Source of the DNA: Bacteroidales bacterium
Lineage (GTDB): Bacteria > Bacteroidota > Bacteroidia > Bacteroidales > UBA12077
Length of the DNA: 64,000 nt
Direction of reading: 5' to 3'
Assembly (NCBI GenBank): GCA_028282585.1
Contig: JANQHR010000126.1
Location: forward strand, 32,001-96,000
Made by a program: the position numbers and the translations under genes. The notes under the pieces were generated by a model that had not been told where the DNA came from, did not search any database, and was given only the letters and a program-made list of their open reading frames with translations. Shown piece by piece: positions 10,692-31,959 of the stretch (position 1 is its first letter; every line of letters starts with the position of its first letter).

Positions 10692-13600
10692 ATGAAAAAT
10701 TTCCGTTTATACAATATTGTTGTTGGCTGGATTTCATTCTTAATAGCTGCAATTGTTTATATGCTAACCATTGAACCAACTGCCAGTTTTTGGGATTGTG
10801 GAGAGTTTATAGCATCTGCATATAAATTAGAGATTGGTCACCCTCCTGGCGCACCGTTTTTTATGATATTAGGTAGGTTTTTTACAATTTTTACAGGATC
10901 TCCGGAAAATGCTGCAAAAATGGTTAATATATTATCAGGGTTGGCTAGTGCCTTTACAATATTGTTCTTATTTTGGACAATCACTCATTTTGTTCGTAAA
11001 ATTGTTATTAAAGCTGATAAAGATTATAGCACCGGGAATATTATAACTATTTTAGGTAGTGGATTGGTTGGTGCATTAGCTTATACTTTTTCAGATACTT
11101 TTTGGTTTTCAGCTGTTGAAGCAGAAGTTTATGCAACATCTTCATTATTTACTGCAGTAGTTTTCTGGGCAATTTTAAAATGGGAAAATGAATCGGACAG
11201 AAAATATGCTAATCGCTGGATTATTTTAATTGCTTATCTGATTGGACTTTCAATTGGTGTTCACCTGTTAAATTTATTGGCGATTCCCGCAATAGTTTTT
11301 GTTTATTATTTTAAAAAATACCCGGTAACTAAAAAAGGAGTATTTTATGCATTATTAATTTCCGGAATTTTATTAGGATCAATCATGTATATATTGATAC
11401 CAGGCATTGTAAAAGTAGCATCTTGGTTCGATTTGTTATTTGTAAATGGATTTGGATTACCATTTAATTCGGGAACAATATTTTACGTAGCTGTTTTAAT
11501 TTCATTGATTATTTGGGGAATAAAATATACTCAGCGAAAAGGTAAAGTTGTATTTAATACCATAATTTTGGGAATGACAGTAGTTTTAATAGGATACTCG
11601 TCTTACGCAATGATTATTATTCGATCATCTGCTGATCCACCAATGGATCAAAATAATCCTGATAATGCTTTTGACTTACTTTATTATTTAAATCGGGAAC
11701 AATATGGAGATAGACCTTTATTTTATGGTCAGACTTTTGATGCTCCCATGGTTGATAATAAAAAAACAAAGCCTGTCTACATAAAAAAAGGAGGTAAATA
11801 TATTATAGCAGATCATAAAATTGAAGTTGAATATGATGATCGATTTACTACGTTATTTCCAAGAATGTATAGTCCGGATAATAATCATGTAAATGAATAT
11901 AAAAAGTGGTCAAATCTTGATGGAGATGAAATTACAGTTAATTCAAGAGGAGGTCAGGTAGAGAAAAGGATTAAACCTTCTTTTGGAGATAATATAGGAT
12001 TCTTTATTAGATATCAGGTTGGCCATATGTATTTTAGATATTTTATGTGGAATTTCGCCGGGCGACAAAATGATATTCAAGGGCATGGAAATGTTTTAAA
12101 AGGAAATTGGTTAAGTGGAATTCCATTTATTGATAATGCAAGATTAGGAGATCAGGATTTGGTTCCCGAGCATTTGAAAAATAACCCTGCAAGAAATGAA
12201 TATTTTATGCTCCCATTTATATTAGGATTAGTTGGATTATTTTTTCATTACAAAAAGCAAAAATATGATTTTACAATAGTGCTAATGTTGTTTATTCTAA
12301 CAGGTTTGGCAATTGTTGTTTATTTGAATCAGTATCCGTTACAACCACGCGAACGGGATTATGCCTATGCAGGATCGTTTTATGCATTTTCAATTTGGCT
12401 GGGTTTAGGAGTTGCAGGATTAATTGATTTATTAAGTAAAAAGGCTCCAAAGGTAATGTCTGCCTCTTTAGTTACTTTAATAACCTTAATATTGGTACCT
12501 GGAATAATGGCATCTGAGAATTGGGATGATCATGATAGATCAGGACGTTATACCGCAAGAGATATGGCATATAATTACCTTAACTCATGTAAGGAGAATG
12601 CTATCTTATTTACAAATGGCGATAATGATACGTTTCCGCTTTGGTATGCTCAAGAAGTGGAAGGCATAAGAACAGACATAAAGGTTTGTAATCTGAGTTA
12701 TTTACGCGCAGCTTGGTATATAGATCAAATGAGCAGAAAATCATATGAATCGGAAAAACTTCCATTTTCATTAACTTATGAACAATACCATAAAGGGAAT
12801 CGCGATATTTTGCCAATTTACGATAGAGTAGGACAGGCAGTTGATGTAAAAGATGTAATGGAATTTATTGCAAGTGATGATCCAAAAACTAAAATTAAAT
12901 CACCTTTTGTCGCAAATGAAACAATTAATTACATCCCAACTGATAAGTTTAAACTGCAGATAAATGCTGAAGATGTGTTGAAAAAGGGTATTGTAAGTGA
13001 AAAATACGCAGATAGAATTGAAGATAAAATGGAATGGAGTTTTGGTCAGCGATATTTATATAAAGACGGATTAATGCTACTTGATATGTTAGCAACAAAT
13101 AATTGGGAGAGACCAATTTATTGGGCAATGACTGTTTCAAGTTCAAAGTATTTTAACCTGCAAAAGTATTTTAAAGTTGATGGGCTAACTTATCAGCTAG
13201 TGCCAGTATTGGCTGAGAATGAAAGATTTTACAGCGGAGAAGTAGATTCGGATGTAATGTATGATAATATAATGAATAAATTTCGTTGGGGTGGAATAGA
13301 AGAAAATGATATTTATTTTGACGAAAATAACATTCGAATGTTTTCTAATTTAAGAAGTAGTTTTGGTCGTTTAGCAGAAAAATTAATTAAAGAAAATAAG
13401 AGAGATTCTGCACTAAGAGTTCTTGATCGATGTATGGAGCTGTTTCCTGATCATAAAATACCTTACAATAATACTTTGATTTCAGTAATTTCAGCGTATT
13501 ATCATGCAGAAGCATATGAAACCGCAGATGATTTGGTACAGAAGCTTTCGGATAAAGTAAGTGTAGAATTAGACTATTATTTTAGTTTAGATCCGAAATA

Positions 13601-13757
13601 CATGATAGGAACTAAAGACATGTCAAAAGAAAAACAATTAAATTTATATATTCTACAGGAGCTATATAAAATTACCGCTGATAATAATCAAATTGAAAAG
13701 GCAAAGGATATTGAATTAAGGTTTATGAATTATATGCAGTTATATAATAGTTATTAA
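10692..13757 (+). CDS. DUF2723-type / TMEM260-like GT-C membrane glycosyltransferase
   Basis: SFWDCGEF, HPPGAP, AVEAEVY, PRERDY, NGDNDTFPLWY motifs. Confidence 0.85.
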   Translation: MKNFRLYNIVVGWISFLIAAIVYMLTIEPTASFWDCGEFIASAYKLEIGHPPGAPFFMILGRFFTIFTGSPENAAKMVNILSGLASAFTILFLFWTITHFVRKIVIKADKDYSTGNIITILGSGLVGALAYTFSDTFWFSAVEAEVYATSSLFTAVVFWAILKWENESDRKYANRWIILIAYLIGLSIGVHLLNLLAIPAIVFVYYFKKYPVTKKGVFYALLISGILLGSIMYILIPGIVKVASWFDLLFVNGFGLPFNSGTIFYVAVLISLIIWGIKYTQRKGKVVFNTIILGMTVVLIGYSSYAMIIIRSSADPPMDQNNPDNAFDLLYYLNREQYGDRPLFYGQTFDAPMVDNKKTKPVYIKKGGKYIIADHKIEVEYDDRFTTLFPRMYSPDNNHVNEYKKWSNLDGDEITVNSRGGQVEKRIKPSFGDNIGFFIRYQVGHMYFRYFMWNFAGRQNDIQGHGNVLKGNWLSGIPFIDNARLGDQDLVPEHLKNNPARNEYFMLPFILGLVGLFFHYKKQKYDFTIVLMLFILTGLAIVVYLNQYPLQPRERDYAYAGSFYAFSIWLGLGVAGLIDLLSKKAPKVMSASLVTLITLILVPGIMASENWDDHDRSGRYTARDMAYNYLNSCKENAILFTNGDNDTFPLWYAQEVEGIRTDIKVCNLSYLRAAWYIDQMSRKSYESEKLPFSLTYEQYHKGNRDILPIYDRVGQAVDVKDVMEFIASDDPKTKIKSPFVANETINYIPTDKFKLQINAEDVLKKGIVSEKYADRIEDKMEWSFGQRYLYKDGLMLLDMLATNNWERPIYWAMTVSSSKYFNLQKYFKVDGLTYQLVPVLAENERFYSGEVDSDVMYDNIMNKFRWGGIEENDIYFDENNIRMFSNLRSSFGRLAEKLIKENKRDSALRVLDRCMELFPDHKIPYNNTLISVISAYYHAEAYETADDLVQKLSDKVSVELDYYFSLDPKYMIGTKDMSKEKQLNLYILQELYKITADNNQIEKAKDIELRFMNYMQLYNSY

Positions 13758-14378
13758 ATGTTAAAAAAAGAACATATTGCAGCAAAAATTCTTAGAGATT
13801 TAACCTGGCATTTTGCAGGAAAAGACAATGAACTTTTCTTAACTTTTGATGATGGCCCTTCTCCTGAGATTACTCCATGGGTGCTATCTATATTAGCGGA
13901 GTATGACGCAAAGGCAACTTTTTTTTGTATAGGAGGCAAAGTAGATAGAAATCCGAGTTTGTATGAACAAATATTGAAAGAAGGACATTCCGTAGGAAAC
14001 CATGGATATTTGCACATGAATGGATGGAGAACAGGAACCGATAAGTATGTTAGAAATGTTTACAGAGCAGCACATTTTATAAATTCGGATTTATTCAGGC
14101 CTCCTTATGGGAGGATTCGTCCAAAACAAATTACTCAATTAAAAAAAGAGTTTAGAATTGTAATGTGGGATGTACTATCAGGTGATTACGATAAAAAAGT
14201 TAATGAAGTAAGGTGTTTGTACAATGTTCTATCTTATGCCGAATCAGGATCAATCATTGTTTTTCATGACAATATGAAGTCTGAGAAAAACCTAAAGTAT
14301 GTTTTACCAAAAGTGCTTGAGCATTTTACGAAAAAAGATTTTATATTTAATTCAATAGAGTATAAAAAAATAGATTAA
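13758..14378 (+). CDS. Polysaccharide deacetylase (NodB fold)
   Basis: LTFDDGP, GNHGYLH, FRPPYG, IVFHD. Confidence 0.92.
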   Translation: MLKKEHIAAKILRDLTWHFAGKDNELFLTFDDGPSPEITPWVLSILAEYDAKATFFCIGGKVDRNPSLYEQILKEGHSVGNHGYLHMNGWRTGTDKYVRNVYRAAHFINSDLFRPPYGRIRPKQITQLKKEFRIVMWDVLSGDYDKKVNEVRCLYNVLSYAESGSIIVFHDNMKSEKNLKYVLPKVLEHFTKKDFIFNSIEYKKID

Positions 14379-15544
14379 GATCTTTTATTAAAAAGGAACT
14401 TATAAATTAACAAAAAAGGTCTTAAAAAATAATAAATAAAAAATAGAGAGTCTTTTATTTTTACTATTTCCCAATCAGACAGATGTGTTCTAAGTCGAAA
14501 CAATAAATCCAGATAATATTTAGAATCTTTTTTAAGTTTTAGTCTGTAAAAAACAAACTTCAGTTTTCCTAAGATATTTTTTTGACTAATATCTTTGGTG
14601 TTTATAGAGTTTAAAGGCATTCTTATTAAGGCAGGTTTTATATTAAATTCGATAAAATTTATCTCTTTAGTATGATATATCTTATTCGAAAGCATACAAG
14701 CCTGAATAAATGTTTTATCTAGTTTTAATTTCTTAGATAGGTCGAAAGCAGATTTTAATTCATTTTCATTGCTTTTTGTAATTGAAACAGAAAAATCTTT
14801 TAACCAAAATAATCTATACCATTGATGAATACTTCCATGCGCAGCCTGATAAACTAAGTTTTCAGTTTTAGAGATATAAGGTAATTTGTAATTTGAAACC
14901 TTCAGGTTTTGTTTGTTAGAGATGATATTATTTGTTTCTAATCCTAAAAATGATTTAGGGTTAGTCATATTCCAATGCAGTTCAATTTCAATTCCTTGAA
15001 TTGAATGGACAAAATGATAATGATGACTTATGCCATAATTGATTTTTTTTTGTTTTTCTGTTAATTTTATAGAAGGATAGACACAGATAAAATTAAAGTC
15101 TTCAATGATTTTTTTTGCTCTTTCAGTATCGCTGTTTTTTACTAAAACATCAATATCCCTGAAATTTCTAAAACCGATATCATTGTATAAATCGATTGAA
15201 AGCAATGGACCTTTAAAGAAACAGTGCTCTATATTTTGTTTATTAAATTCCTCATGAATCCTTATCGCATGTATCGCAAAATTTAAAGCACGTTTTGAGT
15301 GTTCTAACCGGATTTCTATTAATTTTTCGTAAACAGGGATAGGTATTTTTTCTGCTAAAAAAGTAGAATGTTTTAATATATGTGATATGACTCTGTGTTT
15401 AATGGCAAGCTCAAAAAAGTCATCCCAATCAATTTTGGAAAGATCTAATTGATAGTCACTCTCTAATTTATTTTGTGTAAGGTAAATTATAAGTTTGAGT
15501 TCTTCTGAAAATTTTGAACTCATATAGCTTTTTATTTTATTCAT
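14375..15544 (-). CDS. Nucleotidyltransferase family protein (NTP_transf_5-like), lasso tailoring enzyme
   Basis: FKGPLLS...RNFRDIDVLV, IELHW, RLFWLKD; start overlaps the cyclase stop. Confidence 0.85.
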   Translation of the reverse strand: MNKIKSYMSSKFSEELKLIIYLTQNKLESDYQLDLSKIDWDDFFELAIKHRVISHILKHSTFLAEKIPIPVYEKLIEIRLEHSKRALNFAIHAIRIHEEFNKQNIEHCFFKGPLLSIDLYNDIGFRNFRDIDVLVKNSDTERAKKIIEDFNFICVYPSIKLTEKQKKINYGISHHYHFVHSIQGIEIELHWNMTNPKSFLGLETNNIISNKQNLKVSNYKLPYISKTENLVYQAAHGSIHQWYRLFWLKDFSVSITKSNENELKSAFDLSKKLKLDKTFIQACMLSNKIYHTKEINFIEFNIKPALIRMPLNSINTKDISQKNILGKLKFVFYRLKLKKDSKYYLDLLFRLRTHLSDWEIVKIKDSLFFIYYFLRPFLLIYKFLFNKRS

Positions 15545-17409
15545 TTAAACATGGTTGGATTATTTTCAATAAACAGAATTAATTTTAAATAGTTATAAAA
15601 TGCTCCGGGGTTTATATCCCGATATTTTTTTTCTGATCTTTTACGTAATTTATTAAACCATTGTTCGTATTTATTTACATCAATATATTGGGTAATTAAT
15701 TTATTTGATTTTGCCCTTGTAATAATTTCAAGAATTTGTTCCGAATCATTCATCATTCGCATATGAACAGTAGGAATTGTTGCCCCACTTTTATCATTTC
15801 TCCATTGAATTTTTTCAGGAACTATTCCTTCAAGTGATCTTCGAATCAGGTATCTGCCGATTCCGTTTCTAGCTTTCAACCTGGTTGGAACGGATAAATA
15901 ATATTCGATTAAACGGATATCAAGTAATGGATATCTATATTCGATACCATAGTTTCTTGCTATCAAAGAACAATATTCAAGACGCTGTGATACATGCTGA
16001 TGTGTAATTCTTTCAATATTTCTTTGTTGTAGTCCGGTTATATTTAATTTTTGATAATTAGAATAATATCTTTCCTTTATTTTATGTTTTTCTAAAAAAA
16101 ATGGATTGATTGCCAGGTTTTTAAATTTATAAGTCCACCAGGGTTTTTTAAATTTTAGTTTTAAAAGAATCGGGAAACGGGATTTTAAAAAAACTTTAAG
16201 ATACCTTTTTAGATAATTTAAATAATTGGGATATTGATTTTTGAGATCAACCTTAAGTTCTTTCCATTTTTTATTTGCAGCCAATTCATTTAAATATCCC
16301 GAAGATTTTGAGGTAACTACTTCATCGCCACCAAATCCAGAAAGTAAAACAGTTATATTTTCTTGCTTTGCTTTTTCGTATAACTGATCAGAAAATACAC
16401 CAAAATTTTGCTGAAACAAACTTCTGGTCTCACTTACATTTTGTTTTAATGTTTTGAGTAAAGATTTCTCTGATGTTATAAAATTTCGATTCTCTATTTT
16501 ACTATAATTCGCTAATAGATTTATAAAATCCCGTTCATCTTTAAAGGGATGAATTTTTCCAAATAAATGGTCTGGTAAAACATGAGAAAATGATTTAACT
16601 GGAAGAAAGTTTGAGGCTATAGCCATAACACAAGATGAGTCAATTCCACCGCTTAATTCTGCGCCAACCGATTCCACGTATTTGGTTCTGCAACTAACAG
16701 ATTCAAATAGCAAGTGTTTAAAATCGTTAATTATATCAACATCTTTTTTTTGAACTTCCCTTTTAGTGTTTAGTACCCAATATGATTTTATATCGAGCTT
16801 ATTATTTTTTAATATAAGAATGTGTGCCGGAGGTAATTTCTTAACTTCGGCATAAGTTGTTCGGAATTTTTCCGATTTTACAATAGAAATTGTATCGGCG
16901 ACTTGTTGATTGTCAATTGAAAAAACAAGATCGGTTTGTTCTAAAATGCTAGCGACATCGGTTGAAAAAACAAATGAGTCTTTATTAAAATAATAATGAA
17001 AGGGTTTTATTCCCAAATGATCACGAGCACAGAAAAGCTCTTCGTTTTTTGAATCCCAGATCGCGAAAGCAAAATCACCGATTAGGTAATTTACGCATTT
17101 ATTTCCCCATTTTATATATGCTTCTAAAATGATAAAATCATCACTGAGGCCTTTATTAATTTCTAAATCTCTGATGATTTCATTTCTATTGTAAATAACA
17201 GAATCAGAAACCAGGATAAAACCTGCATAATTTAAAATGGGTTGGTTTTCAAAAGGTGGGAAAAGTACTAGCCCAAAACCAGAGTGATTTTCTAGTGTAA
17301 ATTGAGATTTATTTTTTAAATAAACGGTAAGTTTTTTGATACTTTTCTTAAAAAGCTCTTGGTTTATAGGTTCTGTGTTAACGTTTACTCTTCCAAATAT
17401 AGACCGCAT
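15541..17409 (-). CDS. Lasso peptide cyclase (asparagine synthetase-like C protein)
   Basis: GDFAFAIWD, ARDHLGIKP, LSGGIDSS, LSGFGGDE, YPLLD; lacks the N-terminal glutaminase Cys; lasso gene context. Confidence 0.88.
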   Translation of the reverse strand: MRSIFGRVNVNTEPINQELFKKSIKKLTVYLKNKSQFTLENHSGFGLVLFPPFENQPILNYAGFILVSDSVIYNRNEIIRDLEINKGLSDDFIILEAYIKWGNKCVNYLIGDFAFAIWDSKNEELFCARDHLGIKPFHYYFNKDSFVFSTDVASILEQTDLVFSIDNQQVADTISIVKSEKFRTTYAEVKKLPPAHILILKNNKLDIKSYWVLNTKREVQKKDVDIINDFKHLLFESVSCRTKYVESVGAELSGGIDSSCVMAIASNFLPVKSFSHVLPDHLFGKIHPFKDERDFINLLANYSKIENRNFITSEKSLLKTLKQNVSETRSLFQQNFGVFSDQLYEKAKQENITVLLSGFGGDEVVTSKSSGYLNELAANKKWKELKVDLKNQYPNYLNYLKRYLKVFLKSRFPILLKLKFKKPWWTYKFKNLAINPFFLEKHKIKERYYSNYQKLNITGLQQRNIERITHQHVSQRLEYCSLIARNYGIEYRYPLLDIRLIEYYLSVPTRLKARNGIGRYLIRRSLEGIVPEKIQWRNDKSGATIPTVHMRMMNDSEQILEIITRAKSNKLITQYIDVNKYEQWFNKLRKRSEKKYRDINPGAFYNYLKLILFIENNPTMFK

Positions 17410-17423
17410 ATATTCGTTTTAAG

Positions 17424-17496
17424 CAAAGATAAGCAATTTACGCAAGTGTCTTTAAACAACTGAAAACAGGATTTTATCTGTTTTTCAATAAATTTG
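17424..17496. promoter_or_regulatory. Back-to-back promoters of the lasso cluster
   Basis: Minus-strand TATCTTTG at 17424-17431 and plus-strand TAAATTTG at 17489-17496, each 14-17 nt before the respective ATG. Confidence 0.55.
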
Positions 17497-17513
17497 TGTT
17501 AGTTTGCACTAAA

Positions 17514-18410
17514 ATGAAAAAGAAATTTACATATAAAGCATTTGGCTTAATTTTTAACTCGGATTTTGAAATTCCGGAACTCTTAACCGGATCAGGCGAT
17601 ACTGGCATAAAAATCGAGTTGGGGAAGACTCCAAATCAACTTCAAAAAATTACTAATAAAGGAGTAAAATATGAAGCAACTAAAAATGAATTTTTGCTTC
17701 AGGTTGATCACATAGCAAGATATTATGTTCAAGACGGCGAGAAAATAACCATAGAATTATTAAAAGATAAAGTTGATAAAGAAGTTAGGTTGTTTTTGTT
17801 AGGTTCTGCATTTGGTTCTCTTTTTCTTCAAAGGGGATTGCTGCCGATCCATGGGAGTAGTATTAAGTTCAAAAACTTTGCAACTATATTTACAGGCTTA
17901 AGCGGTGTTGGAAAATCAACTATAGCGGCACATTTTGTTAAACTATCTTATCAGGCTTTGGCAGATGACATTAGTGTTATAAATCACCAATTGCAAGTTG
18001 CGCCTGGTTTTCCAAGTTTGAAAATATGGAATGATGTTTTGGAAAAATTGGAAATTGACAGTGAAAAATTAAATCAAATAAGGCCAAATTTTAAAAAGTT
18101 TCGTGTACCGGTTAATGAGCAATATTATTCCGAACCAGTTCCATTGAAAAATATCGTGATTCTTAGCACAAAAAACTCTCCGGGATTTGAAATCGAGGAG
18201 TTAAACGGAATTAAAAAGTTTACTGCAATCAAGAATAATACCTATCGATATCGATTTGTTCAGGGGCTTGAAAAACAACTGGATCATTTTCAGATTCTTG
18301 ATAAGCTCTTGCCGAAAATAAAGGTTTATAAAGTTTCAAAACCACAGGCCCCATTATTGTTAGATGAATTAGGTGATTTTTTATTACAGAAAATTGAATT
18401 AAATGTCTAA
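17514..18410 (+). CDS. HPr-kinase-like lasso peptide kinase (PadeK-like)
   Basis: YKAFGL..SDFEIPEL N-terminus, LPIHGS, GLSGVGKST P-loop, LADD. Confidence 0.85.
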   Translation: MKKKFTYKAFGLIFNSDFEIPELLTGSGDTGIKIELGKTPNQLQKITNKGVKYEATKNEFLLQVDHIARYYVQDGEKITIELLKDKVDKEVRLFLLGSAFGSLFLQRGLLPIHGSSIKFKNFATIFTGLSGVGKSTIAAHFVKLSYQALADDISVINHQLQVAPGFPSLKIWNDVLEKLEIDSEKLNQIRPNFKKFRVPVNEQYYSEPVPLKNIVILSTKNSPGFEIEELNGIKKFTAIKNNTYRYRFVQGLEKQLDHFQILDKLLPKIKVYKVSKPQAPLLLDELGDFLLQKIELNV

Positions 18411-19269
18411 GAAAAATATCATATGGTTGGCTAGTTATCCGAAATCGGGAAATACTTGGTTTCGTATTTTTCTTACTAATTTGTTATACGAATCAGATGA
18501 TCCTGCGAATATCAATGATTTAGCTGAAACCTCCATTTCCAGTTCGCGAAAGATATTTGATGAATACACAGGCCTTTCATCTTCCGATTTAACTTTTGAG
18601 GAAATTGATACATTACGTCCTTATGTTTATCGTATACAATCAGAGGAAAGCAATGAGCTATTGTTTAAAAAAGCTCATGATAAGTTTTATAATGTGAATA
18701 AAAATCAACCCTTGTTTCCACCGGAAGTTTCAAAAGGAGTCATTTATTTTATTCGTAATCCATTGGACGTATTAGTTTCTTTTGCATATCACAGTGCTAA
18801 ACCTATTTCAAGAATGCTACCTTCACTAAATAATTCAAAATATGAATTTTGTGGAAGAGATAACAAATTACAAAATCAGTTAAGGCAAATACTAGGAAGC
18901 TGGTCTGGTCACGTTTGTAGTTGGATCAACCAGGATTTAATTCCGATTCATATCATGAGGTATGAAGATATGATCAATGATACTTTTAATACGTTTAAAC
19001 ATGCCGTACAATTTATTGGATTGAAAAAAACGGATAAACAAATAAAAACGGCCTTGGCAAAAAGTAGTTTTTCAGTTTTATCGAAACAGGAAAAAAAGGA
19101 TGGTTTTAGGGAAAAAATGATTCGCACAAAATTTTTTTTTCGTAAAGGTCAAATAGGTGATTGGAAAAACCATTTAAGTGAACGGGAGGTAGAAAAAATT
19201 GTTTTAAACAATAAAGAAATTATGTTGAAATTCAAATACTTGGACAGTAATTACAAACCTATATTTTAA
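18403..19269 (+). CDS. PAPS-dependent sulfotransferase
   Basis: ASYPKSGNTW (5'-PSB), RNPLDVLVS (3'-PB), FFRKGQIGDWKN. Confidence 0.92.
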   Translation: MSKKNIIWLASYPKSGNTWFRIFLTNLLYESDDPANINDLAETSISSSRKIFDEYTGLSSSDLTFEEIDTLRPYVYRIQSEESNELLFKKAHDKFYNVNKNQPLFPPEVSKGVIYFIRNPLDVLVSFAYHSAKPISRMLPSLNNSKYEFCGRDNKLQNQLRQILGSWSGHVCSWINQDLIPIHIMRYEDMINDTFNTFKHAVQFIGLKKTDKQIKTALAKSSFSVLSKQEKKDGFREKMIRTKFFFRKGQIGDWKNHLSEREVEKIVLNNKEIMLKFKYLDSNYKPIF

Positions 19270-19270
19270 A

Positions 19271-19561
19271 ATGGTTAAAATAAAATTAACGGAAAATACT
19301 TTAATAAAGAGAAAGAATAGTATTCTAGCCAGTGATTTGGATGGGGAAAAGGTTATGATGAGTATCCAAAAAGGTGAGTATTATGGTTTAGGGAAAACGG
19401 GAACTTTTATTTGGGATCACATTGAAAATTACATCTCAATTAGTGATTTAATAACTTTAATTACAGATAAGTATAATGTAAAGAAAGAGCAATGTTTAAA
19501 AGATATTATTCCTTTTATAACGGACCTTATTGAAAAAGAGCTTATTATTGCAACCAATTAG
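19271..19561 (+). CDS. Lasso B1 / PqqD-like RiPP recognition element
   Basis: DLDGEKVMMSIQKGEYYGLGKTGTFIW; 96 aa. Confidence 0.9.
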   Translation: MVKIKLTENTLIKRKNSILASDLDGEKVMMSIQKGEYYGLGKTGTFIWDHIENYISISDLITLITDKYNVKKEQCLKDIIPFITDLIEKELIIATN

Positions 19562-19592
19562 AGTTTTTTTACGTTTAAACTTGTGAACACGA

Positions 19593-20033
19593 ATGATGTT
19601 CAAACAGATAAAGAAATATTGCAGCTTAGATAAAACTGAACGTAAAATCTTGAATCGAACTTTTTTTTGGTTAATTTATGCTTTTGTACTGGTTCGATTA
19701 ATACCTTTAAAATGGTTTAATTCAATTTTAGGGGAATATAACAACGTGGTTGAAGTAACTTTAAACACAAAACAACTACAGTTAATTTTTGTGGTTAAAA
19801 AAAATATAAGAAGAGTAAAAAAACATTTACCCTGGAAAGTTAAGTGTTTTGAAGAAGCAATAACAGCAAAAAAATTACTGGAAATGGTTAATATAAAATC
19901 AACACTTTACTTAGGAGTCAGAAAAGGGAGTAAACAGACCTTAAAAGCTCACGCCTGGTTGAAAAGTGGAGATAAATTTGTTAGTGGAGAAAAAGGATAT
20001 AAAAGTTTTGTGACGGTTGGATTTTATACTTGA
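19593..20033 (+). CDS. Lasso B2 leader peptidase (transglutaminase-like)
   Basis: WKVKCFEEA (catalytic Cys), LYLGV, AHAWL (His). Confidence 0.9.
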   Translation: MMFKQIKKYCSLDKTERKILNRTFFWLIYAFVLVRLIPLKWFNSILGEYNNVVEVTLNTKQLQLIFVVKKNIRRVKKHLPWKVKCFEEAITAKKLLEMVNIKSTLYLGVRKGSKQTLKAHAWLKSGDKFVSGEKGYKSFVTVGFYT

Positions 20034-20059
20034 TTATATGACACTTATGGAAGATTATA

Positions 20060-20088
20060 AAATTTGCATTAAATTTGATTTAAATTTG
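20060..20088 (+). repeat. Three AAATTTG direct repeats at 11-bp period upstream of the precursor
   Basis: Copies at 20060, 20071, 20082; two form TAAATTTG -7 boxes. Confidence 0.55.
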
Positions 20089-20099
20089 AAAAAAGTGAG

Positions 20100-20258
20100 A
20101 TGATGAAAGAAAAGAATGTAAATAAGGAAACTAGTCAACCATGCAATAAACTTGAATGGGAAGCTCCAAGATTATATTGTTTAGATAAAGGAAAAACAGA
20201 AGGGGGAACCTTTAGCGGATATGCTGAAGGTGTAACATATAATGGTACAGCATCGTAA
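20100..20258 (+). CDS. Lasso peptide precursor, 52 aa (not in the ORF track)
   Basis: Hand translation: MMKEKNVNKETSQPCNKLEWEAPRLYCLDKGKTE|GGTFSGYAEGVTYNGTAS*; WxxPxL, Thr(-2), Gly1, Glu9, C-terminal Ser. Confidence 0.92.
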   Translation: MMKEKNVNKETSQPCNKLEWEAPRLYCLDKGKTEGGTFSGYAEGVTYNGTAS

Positions 20259-20270: not shown

Positions 20271-23200
20271 ATGAGAAAAGTTTTATATTTCTTAGGCATC
20301 ATTCTTATTCCATTAAATTGTTTTAGTCAGGCATGGATTGTGTCTCAGCATCTAAAAAGTGATAATGATTTAAGAATCTTAGATATTAAAAAAGATGCTG
20401 GTAATAATGTTTATGTTACTGGTATTTTTAAAGGCACATATAATGGTAATACTTCTGAAGGTCTTTTTGATATATTTCTGGCAAAGTTTAATAGTGATTT
20501 AAATAAAGAGTGGATTCAAACGGTAGGAAGTTCATCTGTTGAATTCGACCCTAGGATTACTTTAGATGCAGCAAATAATATTTTTTTAACGGGCGCTTTT
20601 AGAGACAGCTGTGTTTTTGATGAAAATATATATTTAAAAAGTGACGGTAACTACGATATTTTTCTCGCAAAGTATTCGAATGTAGGAAATATTATATGGG
20701 CAAAAAATATTGCTAATTATCCAACGCAGCAAAATCCGACTGATATAGATGTTGATGGTAACAACGATCTAATAATAACAGGTCACTTTTCAGACTCTAC
20801 GTATCTTATAAATCAAAAAATAGTTAGTTCAGGAAGGAATAGTTTTTTTGCAAAAATTGATACCAGTGGAACTAAAATTTGGGTTAATTATGTGCCAGGA
20901 AATAATATATCTTCAAGAATTAATAATATTAAAGTGTACCAAGATGAATATTATTTTAATGGGTACTTTAGAGATGAGATGTACTTTGATATTGAAACAA
21001 TTACTAGCAATATACCAGGTCAACAGGATCTTTTTATTTATAAAACAGACATAAATGGCAATGGATTATGGATAAGAAGAACTTATGGTGATAATTTAGA
21101 TGCTACTGGTTCTATTGCTGGAGATAATTATGGTAATGTTTACTTTACAGGGTACTTTCAAAGCTCAACATTAGCGGTAGATTCAACTGATATTAGTTTA
21201 TCTAGTCAGATTTTAACCAATAATAATGATTTTGATATTTTCATATTAAAGTACAATAAAAATGGTAACCTACAGTGGAATAAACAATTTGGACTAAATG
21301 GTCGTGATTACGGTGTTGATGTGAATGTCAATAATGATATTTTATACATGTCAGGTTATTTTAGCGATACTATAGCTTTTGGTGAATATTCACTTGAATC
21401 GACAGGAACAGGGGATAGAGATATGTTTATAACTGTTATGGATCTAAATGCGAAGACTTTTAATTCCATATCTCTGGGAGGGATTGATGGCAATGACCTT
21501 GCTGCTGGCGCTTTGGTTTTAGAAGACGGAGATGCAATCATTAGTGGTTATTTTCAATCATCCAGTATTTCTGTTGGAGATAGCTTATTCATGAATGCTT
21601 CACCTGGTTTTAGGGATGGAATAGTTGCAGAATATAGGCCACCATTATCTGCAGTTTTTTCAAACGTTGAAAATATTGCCTGTAATTCAGATAATGATGG
21701 AGAGCTTACAATAACTGCTGAGTTTGGACAAAAGCCTTATACGTATTCCTGGAGTCATGATGGAGGTTTAACCGATTCTACTGCAATAGGGCTTTCTGCT
21801 GCAACTTATACAGTTACAGTTACAGATGCTGTTGACTCAACGGCGGTGGTAAGTTACGATTTAACTGAACCGGATGAAATTACGTTTAATCCATTGGTTA
21901 CCCAGGTAAGTCAATGCAGTTACTCAAAAGAAGGAGTTATTGATTTAAATGCAGCAGGAGGAAATGGAGGATATACATATCAATGGCAGGCGAGCGAAGG
22001 AGGAGATGGTATTGTGTTAAGCGCAGAAGACCAATCAGGTTTAGCTATTGGTAGATACGATGTAACAATAACTGACACAGAATTATGTACAAATGATACT
22101 ATAACTTACATTACCGGACCGGCACCAATTACGTTTGGAGGTTCTGTTGTAACTGATTCTTCGGGGATAGGTCCCGGAGCTATTGATTTATCATATACTG
22201 GTGGATCTGGAAGTCCTGCTTCTTTTACATTTGATTGGATTGGCCCATCAGGTCCTCCAGCTACTCATTCTGAAGATACTTCCAACTTGAGTCCTGGAAA
22301 TTATAGTGTTACTGTTACAGATGTTCATCTTTGTGAGTTTGATACAACCTTTAATGTTGCAAATTTGGATACATTTTATATATTTATTTCAGACCAAAAA
22401 GATGCTTGTTTAGGAACTATTAATGGTAATGCAACGGTTAGCTTTTCTTCACCTAAAGGACATACGTTAATTAACTATTTATGGGATGTAAATGCAGGAA
22501 GCCAAACAACGGCAAAAGCAACTAATTTAGCTCCCGGGAGATATTATAAAGTTACTGTTACTGATACTGAGAATACGCCGAATACAACTTTAGTTGATAG
22601 TGTATATATAGATGAGTTAATATATAATTTGGCAGGTTCATTGTCAGGTACAACAACACTGGATTGTTACGGTGATACGGATGGTTATATTGATTTAACC
22701 ATAACCATAGCTGGAGAGTTGCCCTATACTTATAATTGGAGTACAGGTTCAAACTTACAGGATATTACCGATCTTGGAATAGGAAATTATAGTGTTACAG
22801 TTACTGATGATAATGAGTGTACTTTTTCAATTACAAACTATGCTATAAACCAGCCGGAACTTTTAACAGCTTCTGCTGAAATTATAAACGAACCTTCTTG
22901 TAACGGGGATTTTGATGGTGAAGTAACTGTTGATAGAAACGGAGGGACAGCACCTTACACGTACCAATGGGATGACCCCGGATTTCAAGATACCCGCAAT
23001 GCAGATGGATTAGATGCTGGCTATTACACTGTAACTGTTACGGATGTAAATAATTGTATGACATTATCTGGAATTAATTTAACCGAACCAGATGTAGTTT
23101 CAATTAGTAAAGTAATAAGTGATGAGATATGTAATTCAGCAGGAGAAGGAGCAGTTACATTAACAACAACGGGAGGTACGGATCCTTTTGGCTATTCTTG

Positions 23201-24584
23201 GACTACAACTGATGGTTCAGGATTAATATCTTCTAATAAAAATCAGACCGGGCTTACAGCAGGGAAATATTATTTTACAGCAACCGATAATAATGGTTGT
23301 GCTTTTATGGATAGTGCTGAGATAACGGAACCTGAATTACTTCAAATTACCAATGAATCCAAAACAGATGTGAATACCTGTAATGGTGATAACACTGGTA
23401 CCATAACAATCGCAGCATCAGGAGGTACAGGTATTTTAACTTATACATTAAATCCTGGAAATATTCAAACAAATAATACAGGGGCATTTACAAGTCTTGG
23501 TGCTGGTAATTATACAGTAAATGTTGAAGATGAAAATGCATGTGCAGTAGCTTCAAGTTCTCTGAGTATAGCAGAACCGGCTTTATTAATAATTACTAGG
23601 AATGATGTAAATGATGCAACTTGTTATGGAATTAATAATGGGAATATTGACATTAATGTGTCCGGAGGAACAATTTCATCAGGATATACTTTTAATTGGA
23701 CAACTTCGGATGGTTCTGGACTAGTTGCAGGTTCAGAAGATCAGCCAAGTTTAGGAAATGGGACCTATGATTTAACTGTAACTGATGATAATTTATGTTC
23801 GGATAATACAAGCTTTGTGTTAACAGAACCTGAAGCTATTATAGTTAATAAAACAGTGTATGAGCCATCATGCAATGATGATAATGATGGAACTGTAATA
23901 GTTACACATTCTGGAGGAACTTTACCTTTTTCGTATTTTTGGACAACAACAGATGGAAGTGGCTTAGATCCGGTTTATCGAAACCAAGGTGGATTAAGCC
24001 CGGGAACGTATTATTTAGAAATTACAGATGCTTTAGATTGTATAATTAACGAAGCTGTTACAATTACAGCGCCATCTATAATTACTATAGATTCTCAGAG
24101 CTCTACTGATGCAACCGATTTTAATACTGCTGACGGAACAATTTCAGTAACTGCATCCGGAGGTACAAGTACATTGACTTATGTATTAAGACCAGACGAT
24201 ATTTCGAACCAAACCGGTACTTTCAATTCATTATTACCTGGTGAATATGTAATAGAAGTTGATGATATTTATTTTTGTGGACCAATAACAACAGATACTA
24301 TTACTATTGGAGCAATTAATTCAGTTAATTTAATTTTTGCAGGAGATTTTATTAAAGTGTTTCCTAATCCAACATCAAGTAAAGTATTCGTGGAAATAGA
24401 TATGAATGCTACCTTTAAATTAGAACTCGCTAGTATGTCTGGACAAATCTTATATCAGGATGAAATAATCACAAATGGATTTATGAAAGAAGAGATTGAT
24501 CTTTCCTCATTTACAAAAGGGATTTATTTGCTGAGAATATATAATAATGAATATTACTTAACAGATAAGCTTATATTGCAGTGA
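20271..24584 (+). CDS. T9SS-secreted protein: N-terminal beta-propeller, SprB-like repeats, type A sorting domain
   Basis: Signal peptide; repeated D.xGNVYxTGxF/DIFLAK blades; GGTxPYTYxW...GL..G.Y.VTVTD repeats; VFPNP...GIYLLRI...KLIL C-terminal domain. Confidence 0.88.
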   Translation: MRKVLYFLGIILIPLNCFSQAWIVSQHLKSDNDLRILDIKKDAGNNVYVTGIFKGTYNGNTSEGLFDIFLAKFNSDLNKEWIQTVGSSSVEFDPRITLDAANNIFLTGAFRDSCVFDENIYLKSDGNYDIFLAKYSNVGNIIWAKNIANYPTQQNPTDIDVDGNNDLIITGHFSDSTYLINQKIVSSGRNSFFAKIDTSGTKIWVNYVPGNNISSRINNIKVYQDEYYFNGYFRDEMYFDIETITSNIPGQQDLFIYKTDINGNGLWIRRTYGDNLDATGSIAGDNYGNVYFTGYFQSSTLAVDSTDISLSSQILTNNNDFDIFILKYNKNGNLQWNKQFGLNGRDYGVDVNVNNDILYMSGYFSDTIAFGEYSLESTGTGDRDMFITVMDLNAKTFNSISLGGIDGNDLAAGALVLEDGDAIISGYFQSSSISVGDSLFMNASPGFRDGIVAEYRPPLSAVFSNVENIACNSDNDGELTITAEFGQKPYTYSWSHDGGLTDSTAIGLSAATYTVTVTDAVDSTAVVSYDLTEPDEITFNPLVTQVSQCSYSKEGVIDLNAAGGNGGYTYQWQASEGGDGIVLSAEDQSGLAIGRYDVTITDTELCTNDTITYITGPAPITFGGSVVTDSSGIGPGAIDLSYTGGSGSPASFTFDWIGPSGPPATHSEDTSNLSPGNYSVTVTDVHLCEFDTTFNVANLDTFYIFISDQKDACLGTINGNATVSFSSPKGHTLINYLWDVNAGSQTTAKATNLAPGRYYKVTVTDTENTPNTTLVDSVYIDELIYNLAGSLSGTTTLDCYGDTDGYIDLTITIAGELPYTYNWSTGSNLQDITDLGIGNYSVTVTDDNECTFSITNYAINQPELLTASAEIINEPSCNGDFDGEVTVDRNGGTAPYTYQWDDPGFQDTRNADGLDAGYYTVTVTDVNNCMTLSGINLTEPDVVSISKVISDEICNSAGEGAVTLTTTGGTDPFGYSWTTTDGSGLISSNKNQTGLTAGKYYFTATDNNGCAFMDSAEITEPELLQITNESKTDVNTCNGDNTGTITIAASGGTGILTYTLNPGNIQTNNTGAFTSLGAGNYTVNVEDENACAVASSSLSIAEPALLIITRNDVNDATCYGINNGNIDINVSGGTISSGYTFNWTTSDGSGLVAGSEDQPSLGNGTYDLTVTDDNLCSDNTSFVLTEPEAIIVNKTVYEPSCNDDNDGTVIVTHSGGTLPFSYFWTTTDGSGLDPVYRNQGGLSPGTYYLEITDALDCIINEAVTITAPSIITIDSQSSTDATDFNTADGTISVTASGGTSTLTYVLRPDDISNQTGTFNSLLPGEYVIEVDDIYFCGPITTDTITIGAINSVNLIFAGDFIKVFPNPTSSKVFVEIDMNATFKLELASMSGQILYQDEIITNGFMKEEIDLSSFTKGIYLLRIYNNEYYLTDKLILQ

Positions 24585-24600
24585 TAAAATAACATATTTG

Positions 24601-24631
24601 AAAAAAGCTCTCACCATGAGAGCTTTTTTTT
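24601..24631 (+). terminator. Intrinsic terminator after the T9SS gene
   Basis: aaaaaagctctca-cca-tgagagctttttt. Confidence 0.85.
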
Positions 24632-28445: not shown

Positions 28446-31400
28446 TTATTTTTTAATCTTAACCTTTTCGAGAAGATCAAGTAGTTTCTTTATCTTAATT
28501 TTTTCAGGTAAATCCAAAAGCTTTTTCAGCCATTCATAATAAAGTGCTACATAGAAAAATAGTGTCATTACCCAAATAAAAATGAGATTAAACCAATAAG
28601 TATCATGATATGCTCCGGCAAAGTACTTTCTTGGGGCATAAAAGTGCGATCTAAAATTAAAGAATCCTTCAATGTCAGGGTCTCTATAAATTGGATCTAC
28701 TTGTTGTACAAGTTCATCTTTATACTGAATAATTTTATTTTTTTCAAAAACCTTTTTTACTTGATCCTCGACGCTCTCGTTATGAAAAGCGTTTCTTTTC
28801 ATTCGATATAATTCAGGGTTAGTTTTTAGAAGATATCGAATAATATTTTCTTTCTCATTATTAGCTTTTTGGAATATCATTCCATAATAAGAATATAACT
28901 TCTCAAGAAACTCATTGGTTTTACCCAATACCAATTCGTTGAAATTAGAAGTATCTAACTGATGAGCAACTTCAAAAGGAATACCAGTTCTGGTTTCTTC
29001 TTTTGGTAGTTCTGTTTTAAGCAATCGAAGATCTCTTGTAATTTTTTCCTTTACTTCCGGATCTGTATCAAATTTATACCAATTATCTTCCATATATTCA
29101 ACTCGCTTTTCAAGTTCAGGAAGATAGTAGACCTGTTTAAAGTCGGCATTACTTTCACGCTTCTCTATTTCGTAAAAATTCTTTTCAAATTTATTATTTT
29201 TAAACTGATTTACCATTAAAGCTTCAAATGACCATTTTGTTGGCATAAATTCAGCAACTAAAGGTACTTTCTTTACACTACCTATCGCTCTATTCATTTT
29301 ATCGAATGGAAACATTGCCCCACTTAATATCATCATAGGAATCATTAGTAATGGAATCAAAATATATATGGTTACAGCCGAATTAAAGGATGCTGACACA
29401 TTTAAACCCATCATATTCGCAAATGCAGCGGTAGTAAAAAGGGCAAACCAATATTCAAAAGTCATCGCTCGAATTCCTAAAATATTGTTTGCGATAAGTA
29501 CAAAAAATATGGATTGTATCGCTGATATAGTAAATAAAATAAATATTTTCGAAATCAAATAACTGGATCTACTTAAATTTAAAAAGGCTTCTCGTTTTAA
29601 AATTTTCCTATCCCGGAAAATTTCTTCGGCACTAACCGTTAAGCCTAGGAACAGGGCTACAATTAGCCCCATGAATATATATATATGGATGTTTTCGTTT
29701 TCTCTAAAAATATAAACCTTTGAGTTAGGATCGGCAATATAGCGAATAATATAAGAAAGAATAAATCCTAAAATTGGTGATTCAAGTAAGTTAAGCGCAA
29801 TATATTGTTTATTGCTTATTTTAGACAAGAAATCTCTAATAGTATAGATTTTTAATTGTCTTAACCATGAAGGGATTTTTAAGGTAGAAGGAGGAGGATC
29901 TTTAACCTCTTCCACTTCTTCCATTTTTATATTTTCTTTAAAATTTTCTTCCCATTTTACAGGTGAAATTTTCCTTTTTGGAGTGTACTTTCCGTATTCG
30001 TCAACTACTTTGGCTTCTATAATGTTAAAAATAAGTTCTGGATTAACATTACCACAAGTAGGACATTCTCCAACATCACTGTTAATTTGAGCATCTAGCC
30101 TTTTAAAATACATAACTCCTTCAACAGGGTTTCCATAATAAATCATATAGCCGCCTGTATCAAGAATTATCATATTATCAAACATTTTATAAATGTCTGA
30201 CGATGGTTGGTGTATTACCACAAAAATAAGTTTTCCTTTAAGAGCAAGTTCTCTTAAGAGGTCCATAACATTTTCTGAATCTCTTGATGAAAGTCCTGAG
30301 GTCGGTTCATCAACTAATAAAATAGATGGTTCACGTATTAACTCTAAAGCGATATTAAGTCTTTTTCTTTGTCCACCACTAATCATTTTGTTCATTGGTG
30401 AACCTACTTTTAAGTCCTTACGCTCATATAATCCAAGATTTGTTAAAGTTTTGTTTACTAGTTCAACGATTTCTTCTTCAGTTTTATCGTTGAAACATAA
30501 TTTTGCATTATAATATAAATTTTGAAAAACTGTTAATTCTTCAATCAATAAGTCATCTTGAGGAATATAGCCAATTACTCCTTCAAGCTTTTCTTTTTCT
30601 TTATGAAGATTAACCCCATTAATTAGTATTTCACCCGAAGTTGGTTCGTTTAAACCTGTAAGAACATTAAGCAAAGTTGTTTTCCCAGCTCCACTAGCAC
30701 CCATTAGACCAATGAGTTTACCTTGGTCTTCGGAGAAACTAATATTTCTTAATCCAACTCCACCATTTGGAAATACATAGCCAATATTTTCAGCAGTATA
30801 AGAAATCCGCGTCGTGGTGCTATCTGCAAGATAATGAGCAACAACATCACTGTAATATATAGGTTTTCCTTTAGGAAGCTTTATAGTCCCTCCGCTCGCA
30901 AATAGGTAGATTCGGTTGTTATTAACTGGTAAGCCATTCAAAAATAAGTCTTCATTTCCAGTGTAACGCATAAAGTAAAGGTCAACACTTTTAACCTGAA
31001 GGATAAATAGGTTTCCACCCAAAGCTTCAACCTGAATATGTTTGGCTTCTTTACTCTGATTTTTCCGATCGTTTATGATTAAATTTCCTGGATTATCAAT
31101 TTCTGTAATTTCATTATGAATTACAAAGCTTTCGATATTTCTAAATTCGTCGCGGGTAAGTTTAAATACTTCAGAAACCGTATGAATGATGGCCATTCGT
31201 TGTTCTGAGAACTTTCTATCTGCATTTACTAACTCAAAAAGTCTTACCAGAACAATAATTTTCTGTTTTTGGGTAAGTGTTTTATTAATCTTTTTACAGA
31301 TTCCCAAGATTCTTACAGAATCCTTAACAGAAGTTAATTTTACCTTATCACTTTTTCCTGAATTGTCATTTAATCCGGCTTTTTCATCAAAAAGAGCCAT

Positions 31401-31541: not shown

Positions 31542-31578
31542 AATTTAAAATATATGATAATAAAAGGTAAGCTGATAA

Positions 31579-31959
31579 TTATAAGGTATAACTTACTTGC
31601 TCAAAAGGAACATCAACGATATCTGCATATTCTTCACCTGCTTCTTCCATATCTTCATCATCTTCCGGGAAATACCACTTAATTAGAACACTCTTTCCAT
31701 TTTCATGCATTTCTTCTAGCTTCATTAAAATATCAAGAATTAATTTTGAAGATGCAGTGTTGAAATATACTAATTTAAAGGAAAATACTGTTTGGTCATT
31801 TGCCTCTTCCTGATAATCTTCCAGCCAATTTAAGATAGGCTCATAAAAAGTTGTTACGTCTTCAGGAAGCGATCTGCCTGAAATTTCAAAAATCCCATTT
31901 TCTTTGTCTAGAATAATGGTAGGAGTATCGTCAGTACCTTTAATCTTTATTACTTCCAT
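31579..31959 (-). CDS. SiaC family phosphoprotein (DUF1987)
   Basis: TP, ISGRSLPED, FYEP, YFNTASSK, W.Y..DDEDM.E.GE pattern. Confidence 0.88.
   Translation of the reverse strand: MEVIKIKGTDDTPTIILDKENGIFEISGRSLPEDVTTFYEPILNWLEDYQEEANDQTVFSFKLVYFNTASSKLILDILMKLEEMHENGKSVLIKWYFPEDDEDMEEAGEEYADIVDVPFEQVSYTL

Follow-up and report, generated by a model that had tools for sequence, protein, structure and literature searches.

A probable kinase-tailored lasso peptide cluster in a Bacteroidales genome, with a sulfotransferase predicted to bind the kinase

The closest described systems to the locus characterized here are the lasso peptide clusters of paeninodin (Paenibacillus dendritiformis C454, with the kinase PadeK) and pseudomycoidin (Bacillus pseudomycoides, with PsmK and PsmN). 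Lasso kinases carry a His-Lys-Asp-Asp set of residues (PMC9266682), and the family is described as acting on the linear precursor and recognizing little beyond its C-terminal serine (PMC8498205). In pseudomycoidin, in vivo mass spectrometry indicates that the nucleotidyltransferase PsmN is required for placing a hexose on the phosphoserine, and PsmN loses its activity when D134A and D136A are combined (PMC6993621). For lasso clusters of Firmicutes, Zhu et al. drew attention in 2016 to genes for a sulfotransferase and a nucleotidyltransferase (as recounted in PMC8498205), and Tietz et al. have named the Bacteroidetes an underexplored lasso source (as cited in PMC7533575). Here, we describe a seven-gene cluster from a 64,000-nucleotide stretch of the genome of Bacteroidales bacterium (GenBank assembly GCA_028282585.1, contig JANQHR010000126.1, positions 32,001–96,000). 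This whole stretch is hereafter called the window, and its own numbering is used throughout. The genes are designated N (nucleotidyltransferase), C (macrolactam cyclase), K (kinase), S (sulfotransferase), B1 (recognition element for a peptide that is made by ribosomes and modified post-translationally, RRE), B2 (leader peptidase), and A (precursor).

In common with the paeninodin cluster, the locus has B1 and B2 as separate genes, its HprK-like kinase carries the His-Lys-Asp-Asp set, its precursor ends in serine, and a WxxP motif is found in the leader. It differs in that it comes from another phylum, contains no ATP-binding cassette (ABC) exporter within the cluster, and encodes both a sulfotransferase and an NTP_transf_5 protein in addition. 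Further, the C–N pair is divergently transcribed, and a gene for a type-IX-secreted protein follows the precursor. With pseudomycoidin the locus shares the kinase, the C-terminal serine, and a nucleotidyltransferase with an Asp-x-Asp motif (D130/D132 in N, D134/D136 in PsmN; the likeness is drawn from the motif and the published description). The gene for PsmN lies between B2 and the exporter gene D, whereas here N overlaps C, and S is an extra gene. The Firmicutes clusters with a sulfotransferase likewise combine that gene with a kinase-type lasso cluster, the product being uncharacterized in the account given in PMC8498205; there, the sulfotransferase gene stands at the start of the cluster, whereas here it overlaps the kinase gene and its product is modelled to bind the kinase. 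The linear polyphosphorylated peptides (LPPs) of Bacillota, described in 2026 (PMC13381572), also combine a kinase of the HprK-like type with an NTP transferase and a discrete RRE, but, as outlined in that source, their leader carries YxxP, their leader peptidase is signal-peptidase-like, and a cyclase is absent, in place of the B2, C and WxxP leader of this locus. Finally, S shares its fold family and cofactor motifs with Teg12, Teg14, StaL and the cytosolic SULTs; it differs from the solved SULTs in a family-specific segment within residues 37–110, part of which (49–78) forms the modelled interface with K.

Full-text literature searches on lasso peptides together with sulfotransferase or sulfation turned up no sulfated lasso peptide, and not one word starting with 'sulf' occurs in a review from 2022 on unusual lasso modifications. 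Similarly, literature searches with supplements outside their scope turned up no characterized lasso peptide of this type from the Bacteroidetes/Bacteroidota. Prior listing of such clusters in genome-mining tables is likely; Zhu et al. 2016, Tietz et al. 2017, or their supplements may already list Bacteroidetes clusters of this make-up. Two statements of an earlier, first-pass annotation of the window—that sulfotransferases occur in clusters of this kind, and that no well-characterized sulfated lasso product was known to it—agree with the literature searched, the former having been noted for Firmicutes in 2016 (PMC8498205).

We propose that the locus is an intact lasso cluster of the paeninodin/pseudomycoidin kind in an uncultured member of the Bacteroidales. 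The statement as a whole, including sulfation of the peptide by S in a complex with K, is in our judgement likely to hold. As for its parts, it is highly probable that this is a functional, kinase-tailored lasso cluster, and there is about an even chance that a K–S complex makes an S-dependent sulfated peptide. The product that the first-pass annotation had envisaged—a lasso peptide that is phosphorylated, possibly glycosyl-phosphorylated, and sulfated—is, within the reach of sequence analysis, a supported hypothesis.

The window ORF list (open reading frames) and scans with Pfam and NCBIfam identify all seven genes as intact (Table 1). C scores 385.7 bits (E 4.5e-115) against the lasso cyclase family NF033535, compared with 238 against asn_synth_AEB and 110 against the AsnB model PRK09431. 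B1 scores 96.3 bits against NF033536 (lasso_PqqD_Bac), above the family cut-off of 80, and B2 scores 72.3 bits against NF033537, above a cut-off of 33. A separate PqqD-like RRE and a transglutaminase-core peptidase are thus both present, as in split-B lasso systems. Spacing within the locus is tight: there is an overlap of 4 nt between N and C and of 8 nt between K and S, with gaps of 1 nt between S and B1, 31 nt between B1 and B2, and 66 nt between B2 and A. An alternative start codon for K exists (GTG at 17496); the ATG at 17514 is the likely start, because the homologues are 298 aa in length. The genome holds a single B2 gene and a single PF14907 gene. Overall, at the sequence level, the locus has the features of the kinase-tailored, paeninodin-like lasso family, with the exception of an in-cluster exporter.

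Table 1. Features of the lasso peptide locus and the adjoining d1 gene (window coordinates).
Feature	Position	Strand	Details
N, NTP_transf_5 nucleotidyltransferase (PsmN-like family)	14375–15544	-	389 aa; PF14907, E 9.7e-46
C, lasso macrolactam cyclase, asparagine-synthase fold	15541–17409	-	622 aa; NF033535, 385.7 bits; PF00733, E 1.4e-43
C–K divergent intergenic region, candidate promoters	17410–17513		104-nt gap
K, HprK-like lasso-peptide kinase	17514–18410	+	298 aa; weak PF07475 and TIGR00679 matches
S, PAPS-type sulfotransferase	18403–19269	+	288 aa; PF00685 Sulfotransfer_1, E 6.2e-28
B1, PqqD-type RRE	19271–19561	+	96 aa; NF033536; PF05402, E 1.4e-15
B2, lasso leader peptidase, transglutaminase core	19593–20033	+	146 aa; NF033537, PF13471
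A, lasso precursor	20100–20258	+	52 aa; WEAPRL in leader; C-terminal Ser
d1, secreted SBBP-propeller/SprB protein	20271–24584	+	1437 aa; signal peptide; type-IX C-terminal sorting domain
Terminator-like hairpin after d1	24600–24630	+	14 pairs and T run

The arrangement recurs in other genomes. A scan of one genome per species gave 80 related loci, and in 15 of these, tblastn with the window proteins (~46–85% identity) recovers all seven genes, ordered and oriented as in the window; additional contigs end inside the cluster. A chance arrangement of the genes is dismissed on account of this recurrence. K has 846 database relatives at E ≤0.001; those that are named come mostly from Bacteroidales or Marinilabiliales metagenome-assembled genomes (MAGs), and most are 298 aa long. 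Of 201 genomes sampled from the order, 34 have a homologue of K (E ≤1e-10), as do 28 of 401 sampled from the phylum, the window's own genome being counted in both. Homologues of S were found in five of the 401 phylum genomes, and in two of these five K adjoins S.

Residues expected of active enzymes are conserved in the tailoring and maturation proteins. In K, an alignment of 22 sequences shows no variation at H113, K134 and D152 and conservation of 90% or more at D151, and all four are invariant in another alignment of 24 sequences. In N, K111, G112, D130 and D132 are at least 95% conserved (32 sequences), and N remains beside C in relatives with a split cluster. Searches against PDB sequences gave a best match of only E 0.056 for K and no match at E up to 1 for N. 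B2 has C85 and H120 conserved at 95% or more (40 sequences), and C retains a PP-loop, SGGxDS, at residues 253–258 (42 sequences). The N-terminus of C reads MRSIF and so lacks Cys2, the mark of glutamine-hydrolysing asparagine synthases.

In S, the segment PKSGNTW (13–19), H92, R118/N119/P120, and F245/F246/R247/G249/G252/W254 (FFRxGxxGxW, 245–254) are invariant among 22 sequences; these conserved blocks include what we take to be the 5'-phosphosulfate loop, the 3'-phosphate motif and the catalytic histidine. The window sequence FFRKGQIGDWKNH aligns with the corresponding motif of solved cytosolic SULTs. Matches to S among PDB sequences comprise cytosolic SULTs together with Teg12, Teg14 and StaL; the E value is 1.6e-17 for a SULT2A-type enzyme at one end of the range and about 5e-10 for Teg12 at the other. 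Teg12, Teg14 and StaL sulfate peptide phenols. The cofactor of S, 3'-phosphoadenosine-5'-phosphosulfate (PAPS), can be made, since a gene for adenosine-5'-phosphosulfate (APS) kinase is present elsewhere in the genome. Separately, the genome contains four further Sulfotransfer_1 genes (G000:C19:11696-12493, C91:41461-42084, C6:23096-23875 and C116:55464-56252). None of these adjoins a kinase homologue; one is on the same contig as the window, which begins ~8 kb after it.

These results bear on several claims of the first-pass annotation. The seven genes it had listed are present at the coordinates it gave, by ORF list and by Pfam and NCBIfam scans. Its PadeK-like kinase is supported by the His-Lys-Asp-Asp set of K and by a C-terminal serine in 22 of 22 precursors (below), and its pseudomycoidin-type nucleotidyltransferase is consistent with the PF14907 assignment of N and the conserved D130/D132 pair. 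Its concern that C might group with true AsnB can be set aside, given the far higher score of C as a lasso cyclase. The description of the cluster as 'complete' stands for the biosynthesis genes and falls for export, there being no exporter in the cluster.

The chief extension of the first-pass annotation concerns the K–S pair. S directly follows K in 54 of 69 classifiable loci, from several phyla (of the 80 loci, 54 have S, 15 have no S despite at least 1.5 kb of downstream sequence, and 11 are unclassifiable). The labels attached to K–S pairs include Chloroflexota/Anaerolineae, Xanthomonadaceae, Pseudoxanthomonas, Pseudomarimonas, Ancylobacter, and a delta-proteobacterial MAG. The overlap between the K stop and the S start has identical coordinates in 13 close loci; more distant loci show a small overlap or gap.

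Structure prediction of K together with S (input: a 22-row alignment per chain, in matched order) gave ipSAE values of 0.91, 0.91 and 0.92, versus 0.01 for the best of three controls; in calibration, 58 of 80 solved complexes and 2 of 110 mismatched pairs attained this mark, figures that are approximate here, because we supplied our own alignments. Contacts agreed by at least 97% across runs, and the predicted local distance difference test (pLDDT) of the partners was at least 87. On K, the modelled interface comprises residues 49–53, 62–65 and 93–98 and the catalytic face (P-loop 129–133, D152, K170 and 172–175); on S, it comprises residues 49–78, 152–158 and 234–238. No solved sulfotransferase aligns with residues 37–110 of S, a stretch with many positions that are invariant among K-linked S proteins.

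The interface of K is also the better conserved where S is present. Conservation at interface positions averages 0.67 in 31 distant K proteins that adjoin an S, versus 0.52 in 15 without S, while non-interface positions score 0.52 and 0.48, respectively; the set with S is dominated by related Bacteroidales, making this contrast suggestive only. Standout interface residues are G50 (0.90 with S vs 0.27 without), V51 (0.81 vs 0.13) and R190 (0.94 vs 0.33), and N221 is another. Unlinked sulfotransferases from the same genome and from relatives differ from S at the interface segment, a comparison in which overall divergence leaves little discrimination. PDB sequence searches with K and S turned up no kinase–sulfotransferase complex, and we know of no solved complex of this kind. 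The model supports a K–S heterocomplex, and the conservation pattern is suggestive of one. We infer that S, itself devoid of a recognition domain, may ride on K and sulfate a hydroxyl near the C-terminus of the peptide.

Precursors were collected from the window and 21 close loci, giving a set of 22. The search accepted ATG-started ORFs of 25–110 aa that end in Ser and contain [YWF]xxPx[LIVMF]; false matches to this pattern (ORFs inside other genes or far from lasso genes) were discarded by eye. Nothing convincing was found by this search in L127, L128, or several loci with B1/B2 (e.g., L057, L058, L061, L076 and L084), and loci without a convincing precursor are excluded from all precursor counts. 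Within the set of 22, the leader is conserved, approximately as L-x-W-E-x-P-K-L-x-x-L-D-K-G-K-T-E, and the core is hypervariable. A constant leader followed by a hypervariable core is the pattern typical of modified peptides. The Trp of the WxxP motif is present in 22/22; a nearly invariant Trp at this position is reported for paeninodin-like leaders (PMC13381572). The C-terminal Ser, too, is found in 22/22. More distant precursors also end in Ser, by construction, as the search demanded it. The cores are acidic, with 1–5 Asp/Glu and 0–2 Lys/Arg, and contain 2–7 Ser/Thr. The window precursor itself has the marks of a lasso precursor: a [Y/W]xxPx[L/V/I] motif, a Thr near the cleavage site, a small first residue, and a Glu at position 8 or 9.

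The leader of A ends ...KGKTE(G), and the core is either GGTFSGYAEGVTYNGTAS (18 aa) or the same sequence minus its first Gly (17 aa). The longer core, taken by the first-pass annotation, places Thr at -2 and closes a Gly1–Glu9 ring. A penultimate Thr is the usual rule for lasso leaders (PMC10368454), and 18 of the 22 close precursors would then have rings of 8 or 9 residues. Counted from the residue after Thr-Glu, the acceptor Glu stands at position 8 in two precursors, 9 in 16, and 10 in four (two of the 16 also carry Glu7; the aligned Glu was scored). Cleavage by the penultimate-Thr rule would thus demand a 10-membered ring in 4/22 and, since the first residue after Thr-Glu is Gly in 20/22 and Asn in 2/22, an Asn1 in two. 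Natural lasso rings are given as 7–9 residues in PMC8498205, where a 10-residue ring is mentioned only as an in vitro analogue. The second residue after Thr-Glu is Gly in 22/22; distant Bacteroidales precursors likewise show a variable residue (D, T or S) followed by Gly. Counted from this invariant Gly, the acceptor Glu falls at position 7, 8 or 9. The 17-aa core is favoured because the invariant Gly as residue 1 gives 7–9-membered rings in 22/22, and we lean towards this core, with a putative Gly1–Glu8 ring; the 18-aa core is a serious contender, somewhat short of an even chance. The computed mass of the cyclized, unmodified 17-aa core is 1662.716 Da, and that of the cyclized 18-aa core 1719.7376 Da. 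The latter reproduces the ~1719.74 Da calculated earlier by hand; cleavage may fall one Gly later, with the corresponding change in mass.

From the above, the following pathway can be proposed. (i) B1 would bind the WEAPRL motif of the leader. (ii) K, with ATP, would phosphorylate the side chain of the invariant C-terminal Ser while the precursor is still linear. (iii) S, held on K as a heterocomplex, would transfer sulfate from PAPS to a hydroxyl in the tail, which is acidic and rich in such groups; the acceptors may be ranked as a tail Tyr first, Ser/Thr next, and then a group already on the C-terminus. (iv) N may add a hexose onto the phosphate, by analogy with PsmN in pseudomycoidin. (v) B2 would cut off the leader, and C would close a macrolactam between Gly1 and Glu—that is, Gly1–Glu8 on the 17-aa core (1662.72 Da) or Gly1–Glu9 on the 18-aa core (1719.74 Da). 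These steps would yield a strongly acidic lasso peptide of 17–18 aa, whose short tail may be locked in place by bulky anionic groups at the C-terminus.

A number of observations weigh against the reading of the locus as a lasso cluster with a peptide-sulfating K–S complex. C falls short of the curated cut-off of NF033535 (385.7 vs 525 bits), and K of the Pfam gathering score for PF07475 (23.4 vs 33.3 bits). No exporter is encoded between 14375 and 24630, the expected ABC exporter (D) included, and no immunity gene or isopeptidase was found in the cluster. Cleavage before the invariant Gly puts Thr at -3, breaking the penultimate-Thr rule. Tyr, the first candidate for the sulfate acceptor, is present in the tail of 18/22 close cores, often behind acidic residues, and absent in four, and several distant clusters with S have none. 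(Tyr was considered as a universal sulfation site, and these counts do not support it.) In seven loci (L062, L071, L074, L075, L077, L081 and L082), a K–S pair lies >10 kb from any lasso gene. The K–S heterocomplex draws its support from a model's confidence, which is not a measurement, and the chemistry of the product is read from the gene content. Lastly, counts of loci overstate the independent support, as related loci are kin.

Given these points, several other explanations were considered. The first of these is that the product is not a threaded lasso at all, and is instead branched-cyclic, unthreaded in some other form, or linear and polyanionic. The tails extend only 6–12 residues past the acceptor Glu in the 22 precursors, pseudomycoidin made without the kinase and PsmN is reported to be unthreaded (PMC6993621), and the linear polyphosphorylated peptides of Bacillota use the same set of kinase and NTP transferase (PMC13381572). 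Set against this, C, B1 and B2 are intact, have conserved catalytic residues, and sit beside the precursor, and an aromatic residue able to act as a plug is present in the tail of 21/22 precursors. An unthreaded or linear product is, on balance, unlikely.

A more far-reaching version of the proposed pathway has K and S as an obligate heterodimer that adds two anionic groups at or near the C-terminal Ser, giving the first sulfated lasso peptide—one that is not an exported antibiotic and acts with the downstream protein d1, for example as its ligand. Under this scheme, the sulfate could go onto the phosphate or onto the hexose added by N, and the charged C-terminus could lock the unusually short tail. 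We regard this full version as doubtful.

Lower still in probability is the explanation that the lasso cluster is real and S does not act on its peptide, K–S being a separate module with a small molecule, glycan or protein as substrate. The stand-alone K–S pairs listed above fit this view, having unrelated genes such as SiaC/DUF6272, BipA and LiaF/LytTR as neighbours; so does the fact that only the C-terminal Ser is universal in the cores of S-bearing clusters, and that small molecules are what the nearest structurally solved relatives of S sulfate. Against it, the peptide-phenol sulfotransferases Teg12, Teg14 and StaL are also among the PDB matches of S. In both the window and its relatives, S sits between K and B1 within the operon. 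Of the genomes with a stand-alone K–S pair, five were searched for B2 and all five hold it elsewhere, in three cases beside a precursor that ends in Ser. In addition, the family of K is documented as a kinase of peptide C-terminal Ser (PMC8498205). We therefore consider it improbable that S has an unrelated substrate.

Finally, that the cluster is an inactive relic is very improbable: some relatives do have no C–N at the locus, and some carry IS200-like inserts between S and B1, but the seven ORFs are intact with conserved catalytic residues, the cluster has been kept over many genera (50–85% identity), its leader being conserved while its core diversifies, and the absent C–N pairs are present elsewhere in the same genomes.

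The last point was examined for individual loci. In L050 and L053–L055, K-S-B1-B2-A is kept and housekeeping genes stand in place of C–N. Cyclase loss was rejected as an explanation: all four genomes have adjacent C–N pairs elsewhere. More generally, missing parts of the cluster were located in all ten genomes searched (B2 in 5/5, a cyclase-like gene in 5/5). The cluster is thus made up of three separable modules: C–N, K–S, and B1-B2-A-d1.

The inserts between S and B1 in L039 (11905-12675) and L086 (11846-12394) were considered as extra tailoring enzymes, and rejected; both are IS200-like Y1 transposases. L038 and L052 have S–B1 inserts similar in size to these. Among the taxonomic labels, that of L048 (Thiohalospira sp.) stands out: the locus reads K-S-B1-B2-A-d1 with 50–70% identity to the window, and its content is of Bacteroidales type. 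This contig, with its gammaproteobacterial label, may have been misbinned. L073 is labelled Pseudomarimonas sp.

Downstream of the precursor, d1 begins 12 nt past the stop codon of A. The predicted protein has an SBBP beta-propeller at approximately residues 20–450 and matches PF13573 SprB (E 7.6e-59), PF18962 (E 2.2e-12), TIGR04183 and, in part, NF047494 SBBP (E 7.7e-27). No terminator-like site was found between A and d1, and the two genes are probably co-transcribed. The functional unit probably extends to 24630, so as to include d1 and the terminator-like hairpin that follows it.

The pairing of precursor and d1 is widespread in the Bacteroidales. Among loci with a recognized precursor, 29 of 30 from the Bacteroidales have a homologue of the first 440 residues of d1 that starts 2–285 nt downstream of it, compared with 0 of 13 from other phyla; in L132, the propeller-like match downstream of the precursor is weak. 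Conversely, a precursor-like ORF lies just upstream in 29/29 propeller matches, a figure biased by the choice of loci through their lasso genes. A less biased view comes from the sample of 201 genomes of the order, 52 of which have the propeller domain, often in multiple copies. The DNA upstream of 20 of these propeller matches was inspected. Twelve come from kinase-bearing genomes; six of these have a precursor directly upstream, in two architectures that differ from that of the window (B2-A-d1 and C-A-d1), and a seventh has B2 at the contig end. No upstream precursor was found for the other five (G592, G570, G432, G594 and G463), mostly from genomes with several paralogues. Of the eight propellers from genomes without a kinase match, none had lasso genes or a convincing precursor upstream.

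The A–d1 pairing is thus kept in the architecture of the window and also in arrangements of B2-A-d1 (apart from K–S) and C-A-d1; it survives block inversions in L064 and L087. On these comparisons, the propeller family is broad, and one member is tied to the lasso precursor through several rearrangements. The pairing of precursor and propeller, together with the absence of export and immunity genes, hints at a physiological, non-antibiotic role for the peptide. That d1 is a receptor or ligand partner of the peptide is speculation.

Candidate promoter elements were also noted. Around the C–K gap, the + strand carries a TAAATTTG box at 17489 and the - strand carries TAnnTTTG boxes at 17431 and 17401. 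TAnnTTTG, which TAAATTTG fits, is presumably the -7 promoter element of Bacteroidota. Five identical TAAATTTG boxes occur on the + strand within 2.8 kb, at 17489, 19973, 20070, 20081 and 20256; two of these stand in tandem just 5' of the precursor gene, and one overlaps its stop codon. The total number of TAAATTTG boxes in the window is at chance level (15 found, 16.7 expected), and the promoter reading was made post hoc.

The locus goes beyond routine genome mining in three respects: a probable K–S complex, a possibly shifted cleavage site, and a fixed link to a type-IX surface protein. In the literature searched, the sulfotransferases noted in lasso clusters in 2016 have neither a product nor an assigned role. 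The locus belongs to a large, conserved and wholly uncharacterized Bacteroidales family, of which it provides a compact test system of seven genes in ~6 kb. The questions it poses are whether, and at which site, a lasso peptide is sulfated; whether a kinase and a sulfotransferase form a complex; and whether an anionic C-terminal lock can hold a short tail.

The genes flanking the cluster are housekeeping genes and are syntenic among relatives: a TMEM260-like gene and a deacetylase gene lie upstream, and purD and others downstream. This synteny indicates that the cluster is inherited at a fixed chromosomal site, and not on a mobile element. The polysaccharide deacetylase gene (13758–14378) was considered as an eighth member of the cluster, and rejected: in L064 and L087, it moves with the TMEM260-like gene in an inverted block. 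These two upstream genes (10692–14378), the first of which encodes a putative O-mannosyltransferase of 1021 aa, are 0 nt apart and move jointly in relatives.

The nearest ABC transporter gene (28446–31541, -) encodes a protein with an N-terminal TerB domain, and is part of the syntenic flank. It opens a set of genes at 28446–35212 (-) that resembles a partner-switch system: ABC-TerB, followed by SiaC, DUF6272, and a PAS/GAF/SpoIIE phosphatase. Stand-alone K–S pairs are found directly beside DUF6272 and SiaC in L077 (8846-9776), L081 and L075; this placement may reflect a functional link, or may simply remain from synteny that has been rearranged. The one sequencing run that contains the stretch is labelled as a coral metagenome, which may be its source.

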